Below, in pieces: positions 1-9,619 of a stretch of 9,619 bases of DNA. The position numbers and the translations under genes were made by a program. The notes under the pieces were generated by a model. It was not told the DNA's origin, did no database searches, and saw only the letters and a program-made list of their open reading frames with translations. Within the stretch, counting starts at the first letter, position 1. Each line of letters opens with the position of its first letter. Source of the DNA: a virus. Its lineage: Duplodnaviria; Heunggongvirae; Uroviricota; Caudoviricetes. The DNA lies in the IMG/VR virus record IMGVR_UViG_2617270957_000009, positions 1 through 9,619 of that record; one strand, 5' to 3'.

Positions 1-687
1 CGGCAGGAAACACTGAATGAATGCACCCGTGCGGAGCAGTCGGCCAGCGTGGTGCTCTGGGAAATCGATCTGACAGAGGTCGGTGGAGAACGTTATTTTT
101 TCTGTAATGAGCAGAACGAAAAAGGTGAGCCGGTCACCTGGCAGGGGCGACAGTATCAGCCGTATCCCATTCAGGGGAGTGGTTTTGAACTGAATGGCAA
201 AGGCACCAGTACGCGCCCCACGCTGACGGTTTCTAACCTGTACGGTATGGTCACCGGGATGGCGGAAGATCTGCAGAGTCTGGTCGGCGGAACGGTGGTC
301 CGGCGTAAGGTTTACGCCCGTTTTCTGGATGCGGTGAACTTCGTCAACGGAAACAGTTACGCCGATCCGGAGCAGGAGGTGATCAGCCGCTGGCGCATTG
401 AGCAGTGCAGCGAACTGAGCGCGGTGAGTGCCTCCTTTGTACTGTCCACGCCGACGGAAACGGATGGCGCTGTTTTTCCGGGACGTATCATGCTGGCCAA
501 CACCTGCACCTGGACCTATCGCGGCGATGAGTGCGGTTATCACGGTCCGGCGGTCGCGGATGAATATGACCAGCCAACGTCCGATATCACGAAGGATAAA
601 TGCAGCAAATGCCTGAGCGGTTGTAAGTTCCGCAATAACGTCGGCAACTTTGGCGGCTTCCTTTCCATTAACAAACTTTCGCAGTAA
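1..687 (+). CDS. L: Tail tip protein L, 3' portion (5' end lies upstream of the window)
   Basis: The frame is open from nt 1 (RQETLNECTRAEQSASVVLWEIDLTEVGGERYFFC...) to TAA at 685-687. The translation matches my recollection of phage lambda gpL almost residue for residue, including the Cys-rich C-terminus (CSKCLSGCKF). The ORF track's Met at 49 is internal; the real start is upstream of the window. Confidence 0.93.
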   Translation, partial: RQETLNECTRAEQSASVVLWEIDLTEVGGERYFFCNEQNEKGEPVTWQGRQYQPYPIQGSGFELNGKGTSTRPTLTVSNLYGMVTGMAEDLQSLVGGTVVRRKVYARFLDAVNFVNGNSYADPEQEVISRWRIEQCSELSAVSASFVLSTPTETDGAVFPGRIMLANTCTWTYRGDECGYHGPAVADEYDQPTSDITKDKCSKCLSGCKFRNNVGNFGGFLSINKLSQ

Positions 688-692
688 ATCCC

Positions 693-1436
693 ATGACACA
701 GACAGAATCAGCGATTCTGGCGCACGCCCGGCGATGTGCGCCAGCGGAGTCGTGCGGCTTCGTGGTAAGCACGCCGGAGGGGGAAAGATATTTCCCCTGC
801 GTGAATATCTCCGGTGAGCCGGAGGCGTATTTCCGTATGTCGCCGGAAGACTGGCTGCAGGCAGAAATGCAGGGTGAGATTGTGGCGCTGGTCCACAGCC
901 ACCCCGGTGGTCTGCCCTGGCTGAGTGAGGCCGACCGGCGGCTGCAGGTGCAGAGTGATTTGCCGTGGTGGCTGGTCTGCCGGGGGACGATTCATAAGTT
1001 CCGCTGTGTGCCGCATCTCACCGGGCGGCGCTTTGAGCACGGTGTGACGGACTGTTACACACTGTTCCGGGATGCTTATCATCTGGCGGGGATTGAGATG
1101 CCGGACTTTCATCGTGAGGATGACTGGTGGCGTAACGGCCAGAATCTCTATCTGGATAATCTGGAGGCGACGGGGCTGTATCAGGTGCCGTTGTCAGCGG
1201 CACAGCCGGGCGATGTGCTGCTGTGCTGTTTTGGTTCATCGGTGCCGAATCACGCCGCAATTTACTGCGGCGACGGCGAGCTGCTGCACCATATTCCTGA
1301 ACAACTGAGCAAACGAGAGAGGTACACCGACAAATGGCAGCGACGCACACACTCCCTCTGGCGTCACCGGGCATGGCACGCATCTGCCTTTACGGGGATT
1401 TACAACGATTTGGCCGCCGCATCGATCTTCGTGTGA
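693..1436 (+). CDS. K: Tail tip assembly protein K (N-terminal JAMM/MPN metalloprotease-like domain plus C-terminal NlpC/P60 cysteine peptidase-like domain)
   Basis: 247-aa ORF starting 6 nt after the L stop. It carries a JAMM motif, H-x-H-x7-S-x2-D, in VHSHPGGLPWLSEAD (His codon at 894-896), and NlpC/P60-type Cys/His residues (TDCYTLF, PNHAAIY, LLHH). An alternative internal ATG at 837 would give 199 aa but would remove the N-terminal part of the MPN fold. No clear Shine-Dalgarno precedes 693, so the start is probably coupled to L. Confidence 0.88.
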   Translation: MTQTESAILAHARRCAPAESCGFVVSTPEGERYFPCVNISGEPEAYFRMSPEDWLQAEMQGEIVALVHSHPGGLPWLSEADRRLQVQSDLPWWLVCRGTIHKFRCVPHLTGRRFEHGVTDCYTLFRDAYHLAGIEMPDFHREDDWWRNGQNLYLDNLEATGLYQVPLSAAQPGDVLLCCFGSSVPNHAAIYCGDGELLHHIPEQLSKRERYTDKWQRRTHSLWRHRAWHASAFTGIYNDLAAASIFV

Positions 1437-2005
1437 AAACGGGGGCTGAAGCCATCCGGGCACTGGCCACACAGCTCCCGGCGTTTCGTCAGAAACTGAG
1501 CGACGGCTGGTATCAGGTACGGATTGCCGGGCGGGATGTCAGCACGTCCGGATTAACGGCGCAGTTACATGAGACTCTGCCTGATGGCGCTGTGATTCAT
1601 ATTGTTCCCAGAGTCGCCGGGGCCAAGTCAGGTGGCGTATTCCAGATTGTCCTGGGGGCTGCCGCCATTGCCGGATCATTCTTTACCGCCGGAGCCACCC
1701 TTGCAGCATGGGGGGCAGCCATTGGGACCGGTGGTATGACCGGCATCCTGTTTTCTCTCGGTGCCAGTATGGTGCTCGGTGGTGTGGCGCAGATGCTGGC
1801 ACCGAAAGCCAGGACGCCCACAGCGACCAGCACGGATAACGGTAAGCAGAACACGTATTTCTCTTCACTGGATAACATGGTTGCCCAGGGCAATGTTCTG
1901 CCTGTTCTGTACGGTGAAATGCGCGTGGGGTCACGCGTGGTTTCTCAGGAGATCAGCACGGCAGACGAAGGGGACGGTGGTCAGGTTGTGGTGATTGGTC
2001 GCTGA
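1334..2005 (+). CDS. I: Tail tip assembly protein I
   Basis: 223-aa ORF with an N-terminal ubiquitin-like region and a Gly/Ala-rich hydrophobic segment (GGVFQIVLGAAAIAGSFFTAGATLAAWGAAIGTGG). Its position between K and J, and its 103-nt out-of-frame overlap with the 3' end of K, match the lambda arrangement. Confidence 0.9.
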   Translation: MAATHTLPLASPGMARICLYGDLQRFGRRIDLRVKTGAEAIRALATQLPAFRQKLSDGWYQVRIAGRDVSTSGLTAQLHETLPDGAVIHIVPRVAGAKSGGVFQIVLGAAAIAGSFFTAGATLAAWGAAIGTGGMTGILFSLGASMVLGGVAQMLAPKARTPTATSTDNGKQNTYFSSLDNMVAQGNVLPVLYGEMRVGSRVVSQEISTADEGDGGQVVVIGR

Positions 2006-2023
2006 TGCAAAATGTTTTATGTG

Positions 2024-2044
2024 AAACCGCCTCCGGGCGGTTTT
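2024..2044 (+). other. Stem-loop in the I-J intergenic region (possible attenuator or RNA stability element)
   Basis: AAACCGCC-TCCG-GGCGGTTTT forms an 8-bp GC-rich stem with a 4-nt loop and a short T run. It sits inside the late operon between I and J, so it is unlikely to be a full terminator. The J ribosome-binding site (GGAG, GAGGA) follows at 2053-2065. Confidence 0.35.
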
Positions 2045-2065
2045 GTCGTTTATGGAGCGTGAGGA

Positions 2066-5000
2066 ATGGGTAAAGGCAGCAGTAAGGGGCATACCCCGCG
2101 CGAAGCAAAGGACAACCTGAAGTCCACGCAGTTGCTGAGTGTGATCGATGCCATCAGCGAAGGGCCGGTTGAAGGTCCGGTGGATGGATTAAAAAGCGTG
2201 CTGCTGAACAGTACACCGGTGCTGGACAGTGAGGGAAATACCAACATCTCCGGCGTCACGGTGGTGTTCCGGGCAGGTGAGCAGGAACAGACACCGCCGG
2301 AGGGATTTGAATCATCAGGTTCCGAGACGGTACTGGGTACGGAAGTGAAATACGACACGCCGATCACCCACACCATTACGTCTGCAAACATCGACCGTCT
2401 GCGCTTTACCTTCGGTGTGCAGGCACTGGTGGAAACCACTTCAAAGGGGGACCGTAATCCATCGGAAGTCCGCCTGCTGGTTCAGATACAGCGTAACGGT
2501 GGCTGGGTGACGGAAAAAGACATCACCATTAAGGGCAAAACCACCTCGCAGTATCTGGCCTCGGTGGTGGTGGATAACCTGCCTCCGCGCCCGTTCAACA
2601 TCCGGATGCGCAGGATGACGCCGGACAGCACCACAGACCAGCTGCAGAACAAAACGCTCTGGTCGTCATACACCGAAATCATCGATGTGAAACAGTGCTA
2701 CCCGAACACGGCACTGGTCGGCGTGCAGGTGGACTCGGAACAGTTCGGCAGCCAGCAGGTGAGCCGTAATTATCATCTTCGCGGGCGCATTCTGCAGGTG
2801 CCGTCGAACTATAACCCGCAGACGCGGCAATACAGCGGTATCTGGGACGGGACGTTTAAACCGGCATACAGCAACAACATGGCCTGGTGTCTGTGGGATA
2901 TGCTGACCCACCCGCGCTACGGCATGGGTAAACGTCTTGGTGCGGCAGATGTGGATAAATGGGCGCTGTATGTCATCGGCCAGAATTGCGACCAGTCGGT
3001 GCCGGACGGTTTTGGCGGCACGGAGCCGCGCATCACCTGTAATGCGTACCTGACCACACAGCGCAAGGCGTGGGATGTGCTCAGTGATTTTTGCTCGGCG
3101 ATGCGCTGTATGCCGGTATGGAACGGGCAGACGCTGACATTCGTGCAGGACCGACCGTCGGATAAGGTGTGGACCTATAACCGCAGTAATGTGGTGATGC
3201 CGGATGATGGCGCGCCGTTCCGCTACAGCTTCAGCGCCCTGAAGGACCGCCATAATGCCGTTGAGGTGAACTGGATTGACCCGGATAACGGCTGGGAGAC
3301 GGCGACAGAGCTTGTGGAGGACACGCAGGCCATTGCCCGTTACGGTCGTAACGTCACGAAGATGGATGCCTTTGGCTGTACCAGTCGGGGGCAGGCACAC
3401 CGCGCCGGGCTGTGGCTGATTAAAACGGAGCTGCTGGAAACGCAGACCGTGGACTTCAGCGTGGGCGCAGAAGGGCTTCGCCATGTACCGGGCGATGTCA
3501 TTGAAATCTGCGATGATGACTATGCGGGTATCAGCATCGGCGGGCGCGTGCTGGCGGTGAACAGCCAGGCGCGGACACTGACGCTCGACCGTGAAATCAT
3601 GCTGCCATCCTCCGGCACCACGCTGATAAGCCTGGTTGACGGAAATGGCAATCCGGTCAGCGTGGAGGTCCAGTCCGTCACCGACGGCGTGAAGGTGAAA
3701 GTGAGCCGTGTTCCTGACGGCGTTGCCGGATACAGCGTGTGGGGACTGAAGCTGCCGACGCTGCGCCAGCGCCTGTTCCGCTGCGTGAGTATCCGTGAGA
3801 ACGACGACGGCACGTATGCCATCACCGCCGTGCAGCATGTACCGGCAAAAGAGGCCATCGTGGATAACGGGGCGCACTTTGACGGCGACCAGAGCGGCAC
3901 GGTGAATGGTGTCACGCCGCCAGCAGTGCAGCACCTGACTGCCGAAGTCACCGCAGACAGCGGGGAGTATCAGGTACTGGCCCGCTGGGACACGCCGAAG
4001 GTGGTGAAGGGCGTAAGTTTCATGCTTCGCCTGACCGTGGCAGCGGATGACGGCAGTGAGCGGCTGGTCAGCACAGCCCGGACGGCGGAAACCACATACC
4101 GCTTCACACAACTGGCGCTGGGGAACTACAGGCTGACAGTCCGGGCAGTAAATGCGTGGGGGCAGCAGGGCGATCCGGCATCGGTATCGTTCCGGATTGC
4201 CGCACCGGCAGCGCCGTCGCAGATTGAGCTGACACCGGGGTATTTTCAGATAACCGCCACGCCGCATCTTGCGGTTTATGATCCGACGGTACAGTTTGAG
4301 TTCTGGTTCTCGGAAAAGCGGATTGCGGATATCAGGCAGGTTGAAACCACAGCACGCTATCTTGGCACGGCGCTGTACTGGATAGCCGCCAGTATCAATA
4401 TCAAACCGGGCCATGATTATTATTTTTACATCCGCAGTGTGAACACCGTTGGCAAATCGGCATTTGTGGAGGCTGTTGGCCAGCCGAGTGATGATGCATC
4501 CGGCTATCTGAATTTTTTCAAAGGAGAGATAGGGAAAACCCATCTGGCTCAGGAGTTGTGGACGCAGATTGATAACGGTCAGCTTGCGCCTGACCTGGCT
4601 GAAATCAGGACGTCCATTACGGGTGTCAGCAATGAAATCACGCAGACCGTCAATAAGAAACTGGAAGACCAGAGTGCAGCGATCCAGCAGATACAGAAGG
4701 TTCAGGTTGATACAAATAATAATCTGAACAGCATGTGGGCTGTGAAGCTGCAGCAGATGCAGGATGGACGCCTTTATATTGCGGGTATCGGTGCCGGTAT
4801 TGAGAACACCCCTGACGGCATGCAGAGTCAGGTGCTGCTGGCGGCGGACAGGATTGCGATGGTTAATCCTGCGAATGGCAACACAAAACCGATGTTTGTT
4901 GGTCAGGGCGATCAGATATTCATGAACGACGTGTTCCTGAAACGCCTGACGGCCCCCACCATTACCAGCGGTGGAAATCCACCGGCATTTTCCCTGACAC

Positions 5001-5548
5001 CGGACGGGCGGCTGACGGCGAAAAATGCCGATATCAGCGGTAACGTGAATGCGAACTCCGGGACGCTCAACAACGTCACGATTAACGAGAACTGTCGGAT
5101 TCTGGGAAAACTGTCAGCTAACCAGATTGAAGGTGATATTGTCAAAACGGTGGGAAAAGCCTTTCCGAGAAATGGCAGTTATGCCAGCGGTACAATAACG
5201 GTCACTGTGTACGATGACCAGGCTTTTGACCGTCAGATAGTAGTCCCCCCCGTTCTGTTTCGCGGTGGTAAGCATGAAAACTTCAACAGCAACAACCAAC
5301 AGTCATACTGGTATTCAACCTGTAAGCTGCAGGTGCTGAAGAACGGACAGGAAATCTTTCAGCAACCCGCGACGGATGTCAGCAGGGTATTTTCATCAGT
5401 CATTGATATGCCTGCCGGACACGGCCATGTCACCCTGACTTTCAATGTTTCTTCATATGGTGCAAATAACTGGACGCCAACGACCAGTATCAGCGACCTT
5501 CTTGTTGTCGTGATGAAGAAATCAACAGCCGGTATCAGTATCAGTTGA
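2066..5548 (+). CDS. J: Central tail fibre / host specificity protein J
   Basis: 1160-aa ORF with a strong RBS (GAGGA 5 nt before ATG). The N-terminal roughly 800 aa match my recollection of lambda gpJ ([34 protein letters not shown]...), including a fibronectin-III-like segment. The C-terminal roughly 350 aa are a mosaic of conserved islands ([38 protein letters not shown]) and divergent stretches. Stop is TGA at 5546-5548. Confidence 0.95.
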
Positions 5549-5565
5549 ATTTTAAAACCCAAATT

Positions 5566-5593
5566 CGGGCACCAGAAATGGTGCCTTTTTTAT
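5566..5593 (+). terminator. Rho-independent terminator downstream of J
   Basis: Stem GGCACC (5568-5573) / GGTGCC (5580-5585) with loop AGAAAT, followed by TTTTTTATTT, 20 nt after the J stop. Confidence 0.7.
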
Positions 5594-5606
5594 TTGTGGA
5601 GTGAAT

Positions 5607-7961
5607 ATGGCAGTACAGATTTCAGGTGTGCTGAAAGACGGTGCAGGAAAACCGATACAGAACTGCACCATTCAGCTCAAAGCAAAACGTAACAGCACCA
5701 CGGTTGTGGTAAACACGGTGGCCTCAGAAAATCCGGATGAAGCCGGACGTTACAGCATGGATGTCGAGTATGGCCAGTACAGCGTTATCCTGCTGGTTGA
5801 AGGTTTTCCGCCTTCACATGCCGGGACCATTACCGTCTATGAAGGTTCCAGTCCGGGGACGCTGAATGATTTTCTCGGTGCCATGACGGAAGATGATGTC
5901 ATGCCGGAGGCATTGCGTCGTTTTGAGGCAATGGTGGAAGAAGCGGCACGCAACGCCGAAGCCGCCTCTCAGAGCGCAGCGGCGGCAAAGAAATCCGAAA
6001 CTGCAGCGGCATCATCGAAGAACGCGGCGAAAACCTCAGAAACGAATGCAGCTAATAGTGCACAGGCGGCAGCGACCTCACAGACTGCATCGGCAAACTC
6101 CGCGACAGCAGCCAAAAAATCAGAAACCAACGCGAAAAATAGCGAGACAGCCGCAAAGACGAGTGAAATCAACGCAAAGTCCAGCCAGACGGCAGCGAAG
6201 ACCAGCGAAACGAATGCCAAAGCCAGTGAAACTGCGGCGAAAAGCAGTCAAGCTGCAGCAGCCGAAAGCGAGAGTGTTGCAGCCGGTTCTGCGACTTCAG
6301 CAGCTGGATCAGCAACTGCTGCGGCTAACAGCCAGAAAGCTGCGAAGACGAGTGAAACTAACGCAAAGTCCAGCCAGACGGCAGCGAAGACCAGCGAAAC
6401 GAATGCCAAAGCCAGCGAAACTGCGGCGAAAAACAGTCAGGATGCAGCAGCCGAAAGCGAGAGTGCTGCAGCTGGTTCTGCAACAGCGGCAGCTAATAGC
6501 CAAAAAGCTGCAAAAGCCAGTGAAACTAACGCAAAGACGAGTGAAACAAAAGCAGCAGCTAGCGAGACAGAAGCAACGTCAGCCGCAACAAGAGCAGAGA
6601 ATGCAGCCCGGATTGCAGAAGATGCCGCTGATCCTGCTTCTGTCCCTCCGCTTCCTGATATCTGGCTACCCATGAATGATTCTCTGGAAGCGATAACAGG
6701 GTATGCCCCGGGCTATAAAACAATAACCATCGGCAGTGATGAAATAACAATGCCTGTTAATGGCATATGCCAATTTAGCCGGGCTTCATCTGCAACGTAT
6801 ATTGATAAGTCAGGGCATATTACCGTGGCAGGGAATAACGTTCCTCGTTTTGAAAAATATGGTTTGCTGATAGAGAATCAGCGAACAAACATGTTCGTAA
6901 ATAGTTTTAATCCTGATGCCTGGAATAAAAGCGGTGGTATATCTGTAACATCATCAACAGATGAATTTGAGTTTAAATATGGACGTTTCACAGTAGGAAG
7001 CGACATAGCAGGAACGACAACAGGGAGAAATATATGCACAGTTGCTGGTAATAAAGGCATAGATGTGACTGGCGATGATCAGTACAGTAAAGGTCCGTAT
7101 GTTACCGCGTCGTTCAGGGTAAGAAGTGATCTCAATGTTCGCGCACGTATCCGTTTTGAACGGTATAACTCGGAAGGATACACTTTCCTTTGTGACGCCT
7201 ATTTGTCATTACAGACCCATGAACTACAAATTACGGGTGGTAATGCCCAGCTATTAACAGCAAACTTTGAAATCGATCCAGGTAGTGGATGGATATATTT
7301 TCAGGCAACCCTGAAATGTTTGCCAGAATGGGGAATGGTTGGTACGCAGTTGCAAATTGCAGCCGACAGAGCTGTGGGGTCTTTTGCAACAGGTGACTGG
7401 ATAGAAGTAACCACCCCGCAATTTGAGTATGGTGCTTGTGCAACTTCCTTTATCATAACGACAACAGAGCCAGCTACTCGTGCATCAGATTTATGTAAAT
7501 TTCCGCTGATGAAAAATATGTATACCATGCCTTTTACGTTCATGGTGGAAGTCCATAAAAACTGGTTTATTTCTCATAATGCTGCACCGCGTGTCATTGA
7601 TTCAGAAAATCACCAGTCCGGGGGCCCATTTATTATGGGGTTTGGTTCTTCTGGAACTATCAGTCAGGACGGTTATTCGTATTGCGATATAGGCGGGGCT
7701 AACCGACGTGTATATGAGTCATGCGGAGTAAGAGATCTCGTTATGGGATTCAGGGTTAAGGCTGACGGCATGACATGCTCATTTGCAAATAAGCATATAA
7801 GCACAGAAACAAAAACAGTATGGAAATATATTCGTGAAGCTGCTGTGATTCGTATCGGGGGACAAACGACGACAGGATTACGACACCTTAATGGTCATAT
7901 AAAAAACCTCCGTTTCTGGAACAGAGCATTGTCAGATACGCAGCTTAAGGAATACGTATAA
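5607..7961 (+). CDS. stf: Side tail fibre protein (lambda Stf-like N-terminus, Ala/Ser-rich repeat shaft, LamG/concanavalin A-like C-terminal domain)
   Basis: The ORF track starts at GTG 5601, but ATG 5607 with GGAG at 5598-5601 (5-nt spacer) is the better start, giving MAVQISGVLKDGAGKPIQNCTIQLKAKRNSTTVVVNTV..., which matches the conserved N-terminus of lambda Stf. The middle is repetitive (AAKTSETNAK...). The C-terminus ends in ...IRIGGQTTTGLRHLNGHIKNLRFWNRALSDTQLKEYV, typical of the final strands of LamG-type jelly-roll domains. Stop is TAA at 7959-7961. Length is 784 aa from ATG 5607. Confidence 0.88.
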   Translation: MAVQISGVLKDGAGKPIQNCTIQLKAKRNSTTVVVNTVASENPDEAGRYSMDVEYGQYSVILLVEGFPPSHAGTITVYEGSSPGTLNDFLGAMTEDDVMPEALRRFEAMVEEAARNAEAASQSAAAAKKSETAAASSKNAAKTSETNAANSAQAAATSQTASANSATAAKKSETNAKNSETAAKTSEINAKSSQTAAKTSETNAKASETAAKSSQAAAAESESVAAGSATSAAGSATAAANSQKAAKTSETNAKSSQTAAKTSETNAKASETAAKNSQDAAAESESAAAGSATAAANSQKAAKASETNAKTSETKAAASETEATSAATRAENAARIAEDAADPASVPPLPDIWLPMNDSLEAITGYAPGYKTITIGSDEITMPVNGICQFSRASSATYIDKSGHITVAGNNVPRFEKYGLLIENQRTNMFVNSFNPDAWNKSGGISVTSSTDEFEFKYGRFTVGSDIAGTTTGRNICTVAGNKGIDVTGDDQYSKGPYVTASFRVRSDLNVRARIRFERYNSEGYTFLCDAYLSLQTHELQITGGNAQLLTANFEIDPGSGWIYFQATLKCLPEWGMVGTQLQIAADRAVGSFATGDWIEVTTPQFEYGACATSFIITTTEPATRASDLCKFPLMKNMYTMPFTFMVEVHKNWFISHNAAPRVIDSENHQSGGPFIMGFGSSGTISQDGYSYCDIGGANRRVYESCGVRDLVMGFRVKADGMTCSFANKHISTETKTVWKYIREAAVIRIGGQTTTGLRHLNGHIKNLRFWNRALSDTQLKEYV
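6156..6512 (+). repeat. In-frame near-perfect tandem duplication (189-nt unit = 63 aa) inside the stf shaft region
   Basis: Copy 1 at 6156-6344 and copy 2 at 6345-6512 are almost identical at nucleotide level (AAGACGAGTGAAA.CAACGCAAAGTCCAGCCAGACGGCAGCGAAGACCAGCGAAACGAATGCCAAAGCCAG...). Copy 2 lacks a 21-nt segment (GSATSAAGSATAAANSQ versus GSATAAANSQ). Degenerate shorter units encoding AAK(T/S)SETNA extend from about 5985 to about 6570. Confidence 0.85.
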
Positions 7962-8230
7962 TGCGGGATATAACATTACGATTCGATAACAGAGAACAGT
8001 TTAACGCAATTGTATATGACAGTGGCCTGTTCAGTCTTGAAGAAGAAAACGGGGTTCTTGTTGATGTTATTGGCTGCATTATCGATTACGAGGAGCCAGA
8101 AAACGAAAGATGTACAGGCATTGATCGCGGTGGTTTTTTCGTAAACATGAGGATTGTTGATAGCAGTAAAAACATATCTTCTTTAATGCCTTTCATTACG
8201 ACAGATCAGCATGTAAGGACATGGGCTTAA
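7961..8230 (+). CDS. Hypothetical small acidic protein (89 aa), translationally coupled to stf; function unknown
   Basis: Its ATG at 7961-7963 overlaps the stf stop codon (TAATG), and AAGGAA lies 8 nt upstream. The ORF is A+T-rich and acidic (MRDITLRFDNREQFNAIVYDSGLFSLEEENGVLVDVIGCIIDYEEPENER...). I recognise no motif. It does not resemble lambda-type Tfa. Confidence 0.6.
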   Translation: MRDITLRFDNREQFNAIVYDSGLFSLEEENGVLVDVIGCIIDYEEPENERCTGIDRGGFFVNMRIVDSSKNISSLMPFITTDQHVRTWA

Positions 8231-8242
8231 TGGAGTAAGACA

Positions 8243-9283
8243 ATGGTTACAAAAACAGTAATTCCTGAAGACATCAAAACGCTAAAATCCGACGTTAGAA
8301 AATTAAAAAACGATCAAGGAAGCTACGCAACAAAATCATATGTAGACAGCAAAGATGAAACCGTTGGTGACTGGTCTGCTTCATGGTATCAGCAGGTATT
8401 GCCAACTAGCGGAGCTATATTTGGGAGAAAACTCCGCTCAACTCACCGGACGGCAGGTGTTGAGGATGCGTATTGCGAACTATACCTCAAAAAATGGATA
8501 GACAGTCCAGGTAACGCAATGGCGCGCCTTAACCTGAACGATAACGGGACAAACATTTGCTGGGACTTTACCAACCTTTATGGCGGTACGATGATTTTTC
8601 CCGGTGGCAGCGGATACCTCAAAATGGGTAACTGCCTTATGTCATACAGCAAGCGTGGAAGTAACGCGCTTATTAAATTTGATTACACCGACACATTACA
8701 GATCAAATATGCTAATCATGGGTCAACCATGACATTAAACACACAGGGAACCGCTTATGCTGGTGTTACCGCTAAATTGTGGGGCAACTCCAGCCGTCCT
8801 GTTGTTTATGAAGTCGGTGTTGATGGTGGCGCTTATATGTTCTACGGTCAGAAACAAACCGATAATACCTATGCGTTCGCTGTTAATGGTGCATGTCATG
8901 CCACCGCCTTTAACCAGGCTTCCGACCGAGATCTGAAAGATAATCTTCAGGTGATTGATAATGCAACAGATCGCATCCGCAAGATGAACGGCTATACCTA
9001 TACCCTTAAGGAAAACGGTATGCCCTATGCAGGTGTCATTGCACAGGAAGCTCTGGAAGCAATCCCGGAAGTTGTAGGCTCCGCAATGAAATATCAGGAC
9101 GGTGGAAACGGCTCGGAAGGGGAAGAAGGTGAGCGTTACTACACTGTAGATTATTCTGGTATTACTGGCTTGCTTGTTCAGGTAGCCAGAGAGTCAGACG
9201 ACAGAATAACAGCACTGGAAGAAGAAAACGCAGAATTAAGACAAAGATTATCTGCAATTGAGGCGGCGCTTGCGTCTAAATAA
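8243..9283 (+). CDS. Tail fibre / tailspike-like protein with C-terminal peptidase S74 intramolecular chaperone (auto-processing) domain
   Basis: GGAG lies 7 nt upstream of the ATG. The C-terminal roughly 120 aa fit the S74 chaperone-domain pattern: SDRDLKDN...(K)MNGYTYTLKENG.PYAGVIAQEALEAIPEVV...ERYYTVDYSGITGLLVQVARE, followed by a coiled-coil-like tail (ITALEEENAELRQRLSAIEAALASK). The N-terminal 226 aa are Gly/Thr/Tyr-rich and beta-rich in character. Confidence 0.82.
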   Translation: MVTKTVIPEDIKTLKSDVRKLKNDQGSYATKSYVDSKDETVGDWSASWYQQVLPTSGAIFGRKLRSTHRTAGVEDAYCELYLKKWIDSPGNAMARLNLNDNGTNICWDFTNLYGGTMIFPGGSGYLKMGNCLMSYSKRGSNALIKFDYTDTLQIKYANHGSTMTLNTQGTAYAGVTAKLWGNSSRPVVYEVGVDGGAYMFYGQKQTDNTYAFAVNGACHATAFNQASDRDLKDNLQVIDNATDRIRKMNGYTYTLKENGMPYAGVIAQEALEAIPEVVGSAMKYQDGGNGSEGEEGERYYTVDYSGITGLLVQVARESDDRITALEEENAELRQRLSAIEAALASK

Positions 9284-9289
9284 TATTAA

Positions 9290-9312
9290 GGGGCCGAGCG
9301 CCCCGTTTTATT
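9290..9312 (+). terminator. Rho-independent terminator after the S74 fibre gene
   Basis: Stem GGGGC (9290-9294) / GCCCC (9300-9304) with a 5-nt loop, followed by GTTTTATT, immediately after the TAA stop at 9281-9283. Confidence 0.65.
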
Positions 9313-9325
9313 GGGTAGGATGAAA

Positions 9326-9619
9326 ATGGATATAACACCTTTCCTTCATGCACTTTGTGCTGTGGCTGCACAGCTACTGATTGGTCTTTTTACCGGGAAC
9401 TGGGCTTACGGAGCGATAGTCGGTTGTACGTTCTTCATTGCGCGTGAACACACCCAGGCAGAATATCGCTGGATTGAAATGTTCGGGCATGGCAAGCGAA
9501 TGAATATGCCGTGGTGGGGCGGTTTTGATCCTCGTGCTTGGGATGTGGCAAGCCTGATGGATTTTGCTGTGCCGGTGGTGGCGTGTCTGCTGGTCTGGCT
9601 GTTGGTTAATCGTGGGTGA
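9326..9619 (+). CDS. Small predicted inner-membrane protein (about 97 aa, three hydrophobic segments), function unknown
   Basis: The ORF runs to TGA at 9617-9619. AGGA at 9317-9320 is well spaced for ATG 9326; in-frame alternatives are ATG 9320 and TTG 9311. Hydrophobic helices: FLHALCAVAAQLLIGLFTG, AYGAIVGCTFFIA and LMDFAVPVVACLLVWLLV, with a Trp/Gly-rich loop (PWWGGFDPRAWD). I do not recognise the family. Confidence 0.6.
   Translation: MDITPFLHALCAVAAQLLIGLFTGNWAYGAIVGCTFFIAREHTQAEYRWIEMFGHGKRMNMPWWGGFDPRAWDVASLMDFAVPVVACLLVWLLVNRG

Follow-up and report, generated by a model that had tools for sequence, protein, structure and literature searches.

We analysed a 9,619-nucleotide stretch of viral DNA (positions 1 to 9,619 of IMG/VR record IMGVR_UViG_2617270957_000009), referred to here as the window, which contains the distal tail genes of a lambda-like Escherichia coli prophage: L (partial), K, I and J, then three fibre genes, then a small open reading frame (ORF) that runs off the end. 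The three fibre genes encode a side tail fibre (Stf), an acidic protein of 89 amino acids (aa) and a 346-aa second fibre with its own intramolecular chaperone, and no Tfa assembly protein accompanies them. On balance, we consider it probable that these genes form a mobile side (lateral) fibre cassette, which would build a fibre with two receptor-binding units. A preliminary description of this DNA had regarded the arrangement as under-described for a lambdoid tail. Our analysis indicates that it is a lambdoid example of an already known two-protein lateral fibre and that no new kind of system is revealed.

The first gene encodes a lambda-type side fibre. Directly downstream of J, whose end lies at 5548, the N-terminus of Stf matched PF08400 (phage_tail_N) with 226.6 bits over residues 3-133 in Pfam, and residues 3-96 matched the solved chain 9e7m_Ta, a 'Tail fiber protein', with an E value of 1e-49. 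The mechanically called ORF begins at a GTG at 5601, which would give a protein of 786 aa, and an ATG at 5607, which gives 784 aa, lies 5 nt after a GGAG motif. Because of this spacing, and because family alignments begin there, the ATG at 5607 is the likely start codon. The coordinates and ORFs of the preliminary description, which had stf begin at the same position, were recovered. Within the C-terminal part, residues 423-628 contained a GTA head-spike-fibre domain (NCBIfam NF048003, 47.9 bits against a cut-off of 36). The LamG-like tip claimed earlier was borne out only in part. Laminin_G_3 (PF13385) scored 21.1 bits on the window Stf, under the cut-off of 27.6 and over the last 50 residues alone, whereas the C-terminus of a homologous fibre at locus L071 scored 33.8 bits over 126 residues, above the cut-off. 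In the alignment of the two fibres (446 positions, window residues 348-784, E 2e-89), identity was 37.7%.

The two ends of Stf have different relatives. From approximately residue 327 on, the protein showed 38-48% identity to fibres whose N-termini are unrelated (L047, L068 and L071), including a fibre of the tail-collar type. Near position 6600, the GC content drops from ~0.53-0.55 to 0.42-0.44, and the identity to Stf of phage Tritos falls from ~98% to 30-65% near residue 320, coinciding with the GC drop. This breakpoint, together with the related fibres carrying different N-termini, indicates that the apparent moving unit is the C-terminal module of Stf plus whatever lies 3' of it.

The second gene is coupled to the first. 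The stop codon of stf (TAA, 7959-7961) overlaps the ATG of the 89-aa ORF as TAATG, with AAGGA 9-10 nt upstream, and the predicted protein has an isoelectric point of 4.38, in agreement with the earlier claim that stf is translationally coupled to an acidic ORF. The N-terminus, MRDITLRF, was kept in relatives of only ~30% identity, which confirms the start of the ORF. It had also been called unrecognisable. This was true of Pfam, NCBIfam and PDB, where no sequence relative of the small protein was found, but not of PHROG: the protein is a full-length member of PHROG 1361 (E 1e-30). In a profile search, this family comprised 339 clusters at 90% identity, all unnamed, some of them on 500-700 contigs, and its members keep 12 invariant residues at ~30% identity. 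A word-indexed homologue search with the 89-aa protein alone returned only fragments. An exhaustive HMMER search gave six hits, among them two Ig/cadherin-repeat proteins with marginal E values and one frameshifted read-through, which were not counted as homologous. An AlphaFold2 model of moderate confidence (predicted local distance difference test score, pLDDT, 67.7) showed a beta-alpha-beta-beta-alpha fold. In every fibre checked, the gene upstream of the small gene encoded a homologous lectin-type C-terminus, with an N-terminus that varied between the lambda Stf type, the tail-collar type and others.

The third gene has its own ribosome-binding site, with GGAG 7 nt ahead of the ATG, and its product was 94.5% identical to TRITO_21 of Tritos and 90% identical to ESCO3_00080 of a Nonagvirus. 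The intramolecular chaperone noted previously was readily identified. Peptidase_S74 (PF13884) matched residues 227-278 of 346, at the C-terminal end, with 49.8 bits against a cut-off of 22. The Ser227/Lys232 dyad (A-S-D-R-D-L-K) was present, both residues being at least 90% conserved in 57 relatives, and S227-D-R-D-L-K232 aligned with S-D-R-R-I-K of 6f45, the chaperone of phage S16 gp37. Self-cleavage is predicted to occur before Ser227, with Lys232 as the general base, leaving a mature second fibre of residues 1-226 (24.9 kDa). The S74 chaperones of K1F endosialidase, T5 pb1 and S16 gp37 have the same C-terminal position, the same Pfam match, a Ser-Lys dyad in S-D-x-x-x-K and a long terminal helix. 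Unlike in those proteins, however, the chaperone in the window sits on a very short fibre (226 mature residues) without a tail-binding domain; no recognisable tail-attachment domain was found in the 346-aa protein using Pfam and PHROG. The AlphaFold2 model (pLDDT 65.7) contained an N-terminal helix at residues 9-29, two beta-rich domains, the chaperone and a long terminal helix at residues 304-344.

The first 15 residues of the second fibre, M-x-T-x-T-x-IP-x-DI-x-x-LK, were nearly fixed across cassettes, with M1, T3, T5, I7, P8, D10, I11, L14 and K15 invariant in the alignment. Behind the same Stf and small protein, lambdoid prophages carried second fibres of 227, 234, 346 and 363 aa, and second fibres of 557-586 aa were found in T5-like phages and some Queuovirinae. 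Residues 110-225 of the window protein were 30-36% identical to parts of P2 gpH, P1 and other tail fibres, and a local match to the fibre repeats of T4 gp34 was also detected. What appears to be new here is that the start peptide of the second fibre is conserved while its body is freely swapped, together with the constant position of this peptide behind the small gene, the upkeep of that gene in lineages lacking a second fibre, and its placement in the tfa slot after one and the same type of lectin-like fibre C-terminus.

The claim that no Tfa-like ORF is present also stood up. No match to Caudo_TAP or Tfa was obtained for the window proteins with Pfam, NCBIfam and PHROG, and a tblastn search with lambda Tfa and a DUF4376 Tfa-like protein against all frames of the window returned nothing at E <= 10. 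The complete genome of the viable phage PhiR47_1 contained no Tfa anywhere. Nor did profile comparison of the small-protein family uncover a hidden tfa gene. The lambda Stf-Tfa pair (Ur-lambda) shares with the window the PF08400 N-terminus and the position after J, and the small gene occupies the slot of lambda tfa, with a 1-nt stop/start overlap identical to that of the lambda stf(orf-314)/tfa junction. Position and overlap might suggest that the 89-aa protein belongs to the Tfa/gp38 group in a highly diverged and shortened form and that the locus is a canonical stf-tfa pair. We regard this as scarcely credible, as the small protein gave no BLASTP alignment with lambda Tfa at E <= 100, its family profile reached an hhalign probability of 0.2% against lambda Tfa, no family member hit Caudo_TAP or DUF4376 at E <= 1, and the protein is under half the length of Tfa. 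In contrast to lambda, the C-terminal two-thirds of Stf in the window are unrelated, and Tfa is replaced by the non-homologous 89-aa protein and the second fibre.

A trace of this replacement was found in related phages. In Tritos (L002, 6529-6636) and L039 (5246-5352), the last ~36 codons of a lambda-type tfa (residues 156-191, 86-89% identical) survive as a remnant just downstream of the homologue of the ORF that begins at 9311 in the window; the matching position falls past the window end. The remnant beyond the cassette indicates that the cassette displaced the ancestral stf-3'/tfa segment. At 5473-7117, L039 additionally has a truncated stf (347 aa, PF08400) and, after it, a gene for a 197-aa DUF4376 protein, taken as Tfa-like. 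With these, the prophage would possess another pair of fibre genes, of canonical appearance.

The module proved to be widespread. Among 5,426 complete E. coli genomes, 59 contained it at a coverage of at least 80%, as did several lambdoid phage isolates; identity was 93% in PhiR47_1 and 93-97% across PhiR47_1 and the 59 E. coli genomes. The nearest chromosomal relative (97.5% identity) was a dusA-adjacent prophage of E. coli strain 1517k, where the three products are labelled in RefSeq as 'prophage tail fiber N-terminal domain-containing protein', 'hypothetical protein' (89 aa) and 'tail fiber domain-containing protein'. All three cassette proteins are full-length PHROG members (1419, 1361 and 4563). 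The cassette was present in the lambdoid phages PhiR47_1, PhiR11_1, PhiR55_1 and Tritos, in the Queuovirinae (Nonagvirus ESCO3, Seuratvirus VogelGryff and SA126VB) and in the T5-like phages IrisVonRoten (gp22-24) and AKFV33 (orf137-135). The shared gene order was a large fibre, a ~90-aa protein with an overlapping or abutting start, and an S74 fibre. Relative to the window, these cassettes showed 34-45% identity in the Stf C-terminus and 30-33% in the small protein. The distribution indicates that this is a recurrent, common and apparently mobile cassette rather than a rare arrangement. The suggestion that it is under-described or unusual was not upheld, given the 59 E. coli genomes, the 339 small-protein clusters and the fact that the T5-like two-gene fibre was noted in 2012 and 2016; synteny with related prophages pointed the same way, since the same cassette recurs in lambdoid, Queuovirinae and T5-like phages.

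The T5-like phages provide the known counterpart. In AKFV33 (orf137/ltpA, orf136 and orf135/ltpB) and IrisVonRoten/Bas32 (gp22, gp23 and gp24), the same three genes follow each other in the same order with overlapping or abutting stop and start codons. The C-terminal module of their proximal fibre is homologous to the window Stf (34-45% over ~650-750 aligned residues), their small protein is homologous to that of the window (31-33%), and their distal fibre has the same N-terminal peptide and S74 chaperone. The window likewise holds a fibre module, a PHROG-1361 protein and a peptide-led S74 fibre, contiguous and on one strand. The systems differ at both ends. The proximal N-terminus in AKFV33 and IrisVonRoten is of the T5 pb1/LtfA type, held by the LtfC collar, whereas the window has the N-terminal domain of lambda Stf. 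In both T5-like phages, the distal fibres are 557-586 aa long and 'T-shaped' with two binding domains, compared with 346 aa in the window, and the chaperone region alone aligns between them. As far as sequence comparison can tell, the window cassette is the functional lambdoid counterpart of these two-protein lateral fibres.

The fibres of AKFV33 were described in 2012 as consisting of two novel proteins, and the ORF137 product was found in virions (PMC3326045). Golomidova et al. (2016) placed AKFV33 among the T5-like phages with two ltf genes (PMC4728585). According to the 2021 BASEL paper, siphovirus lateral fibres can consist of one polypeptide or of two or more proteins, and the second BASEL paper models IrisVonRoten gp24 on the proximal fibre gp22, with a galectin-like tip (10.1101/2024.09.12.612763). 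The small protein is not discussed in the AKFV33, DT57C or BASEL papers. In the limited library searched, no literature was found specifically on the lambdoid version or the small protein, and nothing specific on the ECOR PhiR phages or on virion proteomes of cassette phages.

The LtfA/LtfB fibres of DT57C and gp14/gp15 of phiEco32 follow the same principle, in which a tail-bound first fibre bears a second one with its own receptor-binding domain and S74 chaperone, with a role in O-antigen recognition (PMC4728585, PMC10713586). In DT57C, genetics showed that LtfB is carried by LtfA (PMC4728585), and cryo-electron microscopy (cryo-EM) agrees (PMC10713586). However, DT57C LtfB and phiEco32 gp15 share their own 45-aa N-terminus (MSRPLMPKSG...), which is unrelated to that of the second fibre in the window, and the proposed docking region (LtfA 223-471, gp14 239-508) has no counterpart in the window Stf. 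In addition, DT57C LtfA has its own S74 chaperone, and no small ORF lies between the fibre genes of DT57C or phiEco32. The only similarity between Stf and LtfA was a weak one of the repeat-rich shaft to the coiled-coil region (LtfA 58-248). Because of the different N-terminus and the lack of a small gene, the DT57C/phiEco32 type represents a separate docking system. Membership of the window cassette in it was rejected, the second-fibre N-termini being unrelated and gp14 giving no hit to the window Stf.

The small gene also occurs without the third gene. At 24 of 61 small-gene loci, no peptide-bearing second fibre was found within the ~4.5 kb of the small gene that was inspected. These comprised 19 loci of one prophage lineage (among L040-L058), where a gap of ~470 nt separates the small gene from what appear to be the host genes zntB, dbpA and ttcA. 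The others were L068/L069, whose fibre N-terminus differs, L037/L039, which show a clean deletion of the second fibre with the last ~35 codons left, and L071. In L068, the homologue of the ORF at 9311 lies immediately 3' of the small gene, with no second fibre between. In L071 (514-6282), the small protein comes after a 1,325-aa fibre with the Laminin_G_3 tip and before a 500-aa S74 fibre that starts with MSITTEGKV... and does not have the usual docking peptide; this may be a third docking variant. Within the prophage lineage without a second fibre, the ratio of nonsynonymous to synonymous substitution rates (dN/dS) of the small gene was 0.07-0.30 at dS up to ~0.5, a clear signature of purifying selection on the small gene where the second fibre is absent. 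In PhiR47_1 (L001 / L153, 39892-40932 of the record), the second-fibre gene is split into ORFs of 294 aa and 37 aa, and the terminal helix of S74 is lost. As a viable isolate carries this shortened version, it fits the idea that the second fibre is dispensable on some hosts. The second fibre would be optional, because relatives have exchanged, shortened or lost it and yet keep the pair of Stf tip and small protein. Genomic context, selection and co-occurrence suggest that the small protein is probably a non-homologous replacement for Tfa or a cap for the Stf tip.

These results can be combined into a model of the fibre. By homology, the conserved N-terminal domain of Stf would hold it on the tail tip, and the protein would extend as a repeat-rich trimeric shaft, ending in a lectin-type module of ~440 aa that may serve as the first glycan-binding unit. 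The small protein, presumably made in step with Stf through the overlapping stop and start codons, may be a dedicated partner of the C-terminal module, acting as a Tfa-unrelated assembly factor and/or a retained cap, and may be a precondition for mounting the 346-aa protein. As expected from its family membership, the latter would trimerise with the help of its own S74 chaperone, which would then cut itself off before Ser227. Through the 15-residue peptide, the mature fibre of 226 residues may attach at the far end of Stf, to the tip, the small protein or both. In this model, the Stf tip and the small protein would form the core, to which the second fibre would add another specificity that is optional and can be exchanged. 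The cassette most likely would serve recognition of O-antigen or other surface glycans before J binds the terminal receptor. Docking on the end of Stf rather than on the tail itself appears most likely, because the same peptide occurs in phages with unrelated tail tips, whose sole shared partners are the Stf module and the small protein. The preliminary description had proposed a composite or branched apparatus, with the short fibre docking onto Stf or the tail tip, or a two-receptor system. The composite fibre with two binding units and no Tfa is retained here; docking on the tail tip is disfavoured.

Several points weigh against a two-unit fibre of this kind. The docking on Stf is an inference. 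Virion proteomics of AKFV33 covered four gel bands, and ORF137 was the only product reported from the locus. The small gene lay directly upstream at 80/80 docking-peptide loci, but these were the closest to the window among 175 candidates and are not independent. The lineages without a second fibre, inspected only within ~4.5 kb of the small gene, could carry one elsewhere. Spearman correlations of the small protein were 0.55 with the Stf C-terminus and 0.52 with the second-fibre N-terminus, and recombination breakpoints were found on both flanks of the small gene. Because the correlations are similar and both flanks are broken, co-variation does not single out one partner. A comparison of the window with Tritos had suggested that the small protein co-varies solely with the Stf C-terminus; this was weakened by the wider comparison with its breakpoints on both sides.

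The same co-occurrence could mean that the role of the 89-aa protein is solely structural, as an adaptor or hinge similar to T4 gp35/gp36. It would remain in the virion, linking the Stf tip to the second fibre, and would serve only as the socket of the docking peptide. The upstream position at all 80 loci is in line with this, and, besides the Stf tip, only the peptide and the small protein are common to the cassettes of lambdoid, Queuovirinae and T5-like phages. Translational coupling to Stf suggests a fixed stoichiometry. Between Tritos and L064, the small protein was 94% and the N-terminal 20 residues of the second fibre were 100% identical, compared with 41% for the Stf C-terminus. However, a socket with no plug should decay, whereas the small gene is intact and under purifying selection where no second fibre is adjacent. 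DT57C and phiEco32 also carry a second fibre without a small protein, though via an unrelated docking system. We consider a pure adaptor unlikely, if well short of negligible; it overlaps the explanation that we favour, as a retained cap could serve both roles.

Two further explanations would separate the products from each other. It appears very unlikely that Stf and the 346-aa protein are independent fibres, each seated on the tail tip, with a small protein unrelated to either. Although a short self-chaperoned fibre could in principle bind the tail, and weak densities seen near the tail tip in cryo-EM of DT57C, tentatively assigned to folded-back LtfB (PMC10713586), might be read in its favour, the 346-aa protein has no recognisable tail-attachment domain. 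Moreover, a common tail receptor is implausible when the same peptide is found with lambda J-type, T5 pb3/LtfC-type and Queuovirinae tips, and the order and spacing of the three genes are always kept. It is also highly improbable that the small ORF and the 346-aa gene are recombination leftovers without a role in the particle, the latter being the 3' remainder of a once longer stf. Single-chain fibres do exist: PHROG 6578 matches both Stf 35-223 and residues 148-342 of the 346-aa protein, and DT57C LtfA 508-1073 aligns with the second fibres of AKFV33 and IrisVonRoten from their first residues. The deletion of the second fibre in L037/L039 and its truncation in viable PhiR47_1 could be read in the same manner. 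In contrast, the gene order is kept not only in prophages but also in virulent phages of the T5-like and Queuovirinae groups, and the small protein has 12 invariant residues at ~30% identity and a dN/dS well under 1. The second-fibre gene has a ribosome-binding site to itself and begins at a conserved start, and the catalytic dyad of its product is intact.

The features of the three-gene fibre cassette and its boundaries are listed in Table 1.

Table 1. Positions of the fibre genes, their domains and the flanking hairpins in the window.
Feature	Position	Strand	Remarks
Terminator-like hairpin and T-run between J and stf	5567..5586	+	8-bp stem, 5 GC pairs, TTTTTATTTG tail
stf, side tail fibre	5607..7961	+	full-length PHROG 1419; 97.6% identity to PhiR47_1 Stf
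Stf N-terminal tail-attachment domain	5607..5999	+	PF08400 phage_tail_N, residues 3-133
Ala/Ser/Thr/Lys-rich shaft, 189-bp (63-aa) tandem repeats	6141..6554	+	
Stf C-terminal receptor-binding module, ~440 aa, low GC, exchangeable	6648..7958	+	
GTA head-spike-fibre-like domain in Stf C-terminal module	~6867-7484		NCBIfam NF048003
Terminal ConA/LamG-like lectin domain of Stf	~7570-7946		Laminin_G_3, sub-threshold here, above threshold in homologue L071
89-aa acidic small protein, in the tfa position, translationally coupled to stf	7961..8230	+	PHROG 1361
Second, short fibre precursor, 346 aa	8243..9283	+	PHROG 4563
Putative conserved N-terminal docking peptide of second fibre	8243..8287	+	alignment; followed by predicted helix 9-29
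Mature second-fibre body	8288..8920	+	two beta-rich domains, ~58-118 and 150-214 (AlphaFold2); presumed second receptor-binding region
S74 intramolecular chaperone, residues 227-346	8921..9280	+	PF13884
GC-rich hairpin and T-run closing the fibre operon	9290..9304	+	

Upstream of the cassette, J spans 2066-5548 and contains the complete lambda J domain set. Because a hairpin with a T-run follows both J and the 346-aa gene, the three fibre genes form one bounded unit. The spacer between J and stf (5549-5606, 58 nt) holds the terminator-like hairpin and no lom gene; lom is found at this position in PhiR47_1 and E. coli strain 1517k, and not in PhiR11_1 or Tritos. Between 7900 and 9619, the remaining ORFs of at least 50 aa were two short overlapping ones inside the 346-aa gene and the ORF at 9311-9619. 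The latter (at least 102 aa, running off the end) lies directly after the terminator, has hydrophobic stretches and belongs to PHROG 1443, where its function is unassigned. Homologues were also found 3' of the cassette in PhiR47_1, Tritos, strain 1517k and L039, and a DNA search suggests that a homologue (annotated 'FIG00639828') lies near stf-tfa in many lambda-like phages. An antisense ORF of 625 aa inside J (minus strand, 2666-4543) is most likely an artefact of high GC content (0.57-0.64). The Stf shaft repeats (6141-6554) show a strong A-over-T skew. Owing to this biased composition, the other frames and the complementary strand contain long ORFs that are spurious, such as one of 260 aa at 5893-6675.

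We tentatively suggest, as a possibility that is itself rather doubtful, that the small-protein family PHROG 1361 may represent a new, Tfa-unrelated accessory class that stays on the lectin-type tip as a universal socket for the 15-residue plug peptide, so that S74 distal fibres would be exchangeable between lambda-like, Queuovirinae and T5-like phages. If true, this would be a natural plug-and-play host-range system common to three siphovirus groups. Which O-antigen or capsule types a siphovirus gets past depends on its side and lateral fibres, and the modular rules of these fibres matter for host-range prediction and for the engineering of lambda-based delivery particles. The cassette offers a defined, conserved putative docking peptide and a small partner protein that could be used to mount foreign receptor-binding fibres on lambda Stf without Tfa. 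It also provides a concrete candidate function for a very common 'hypothetical protein' family.

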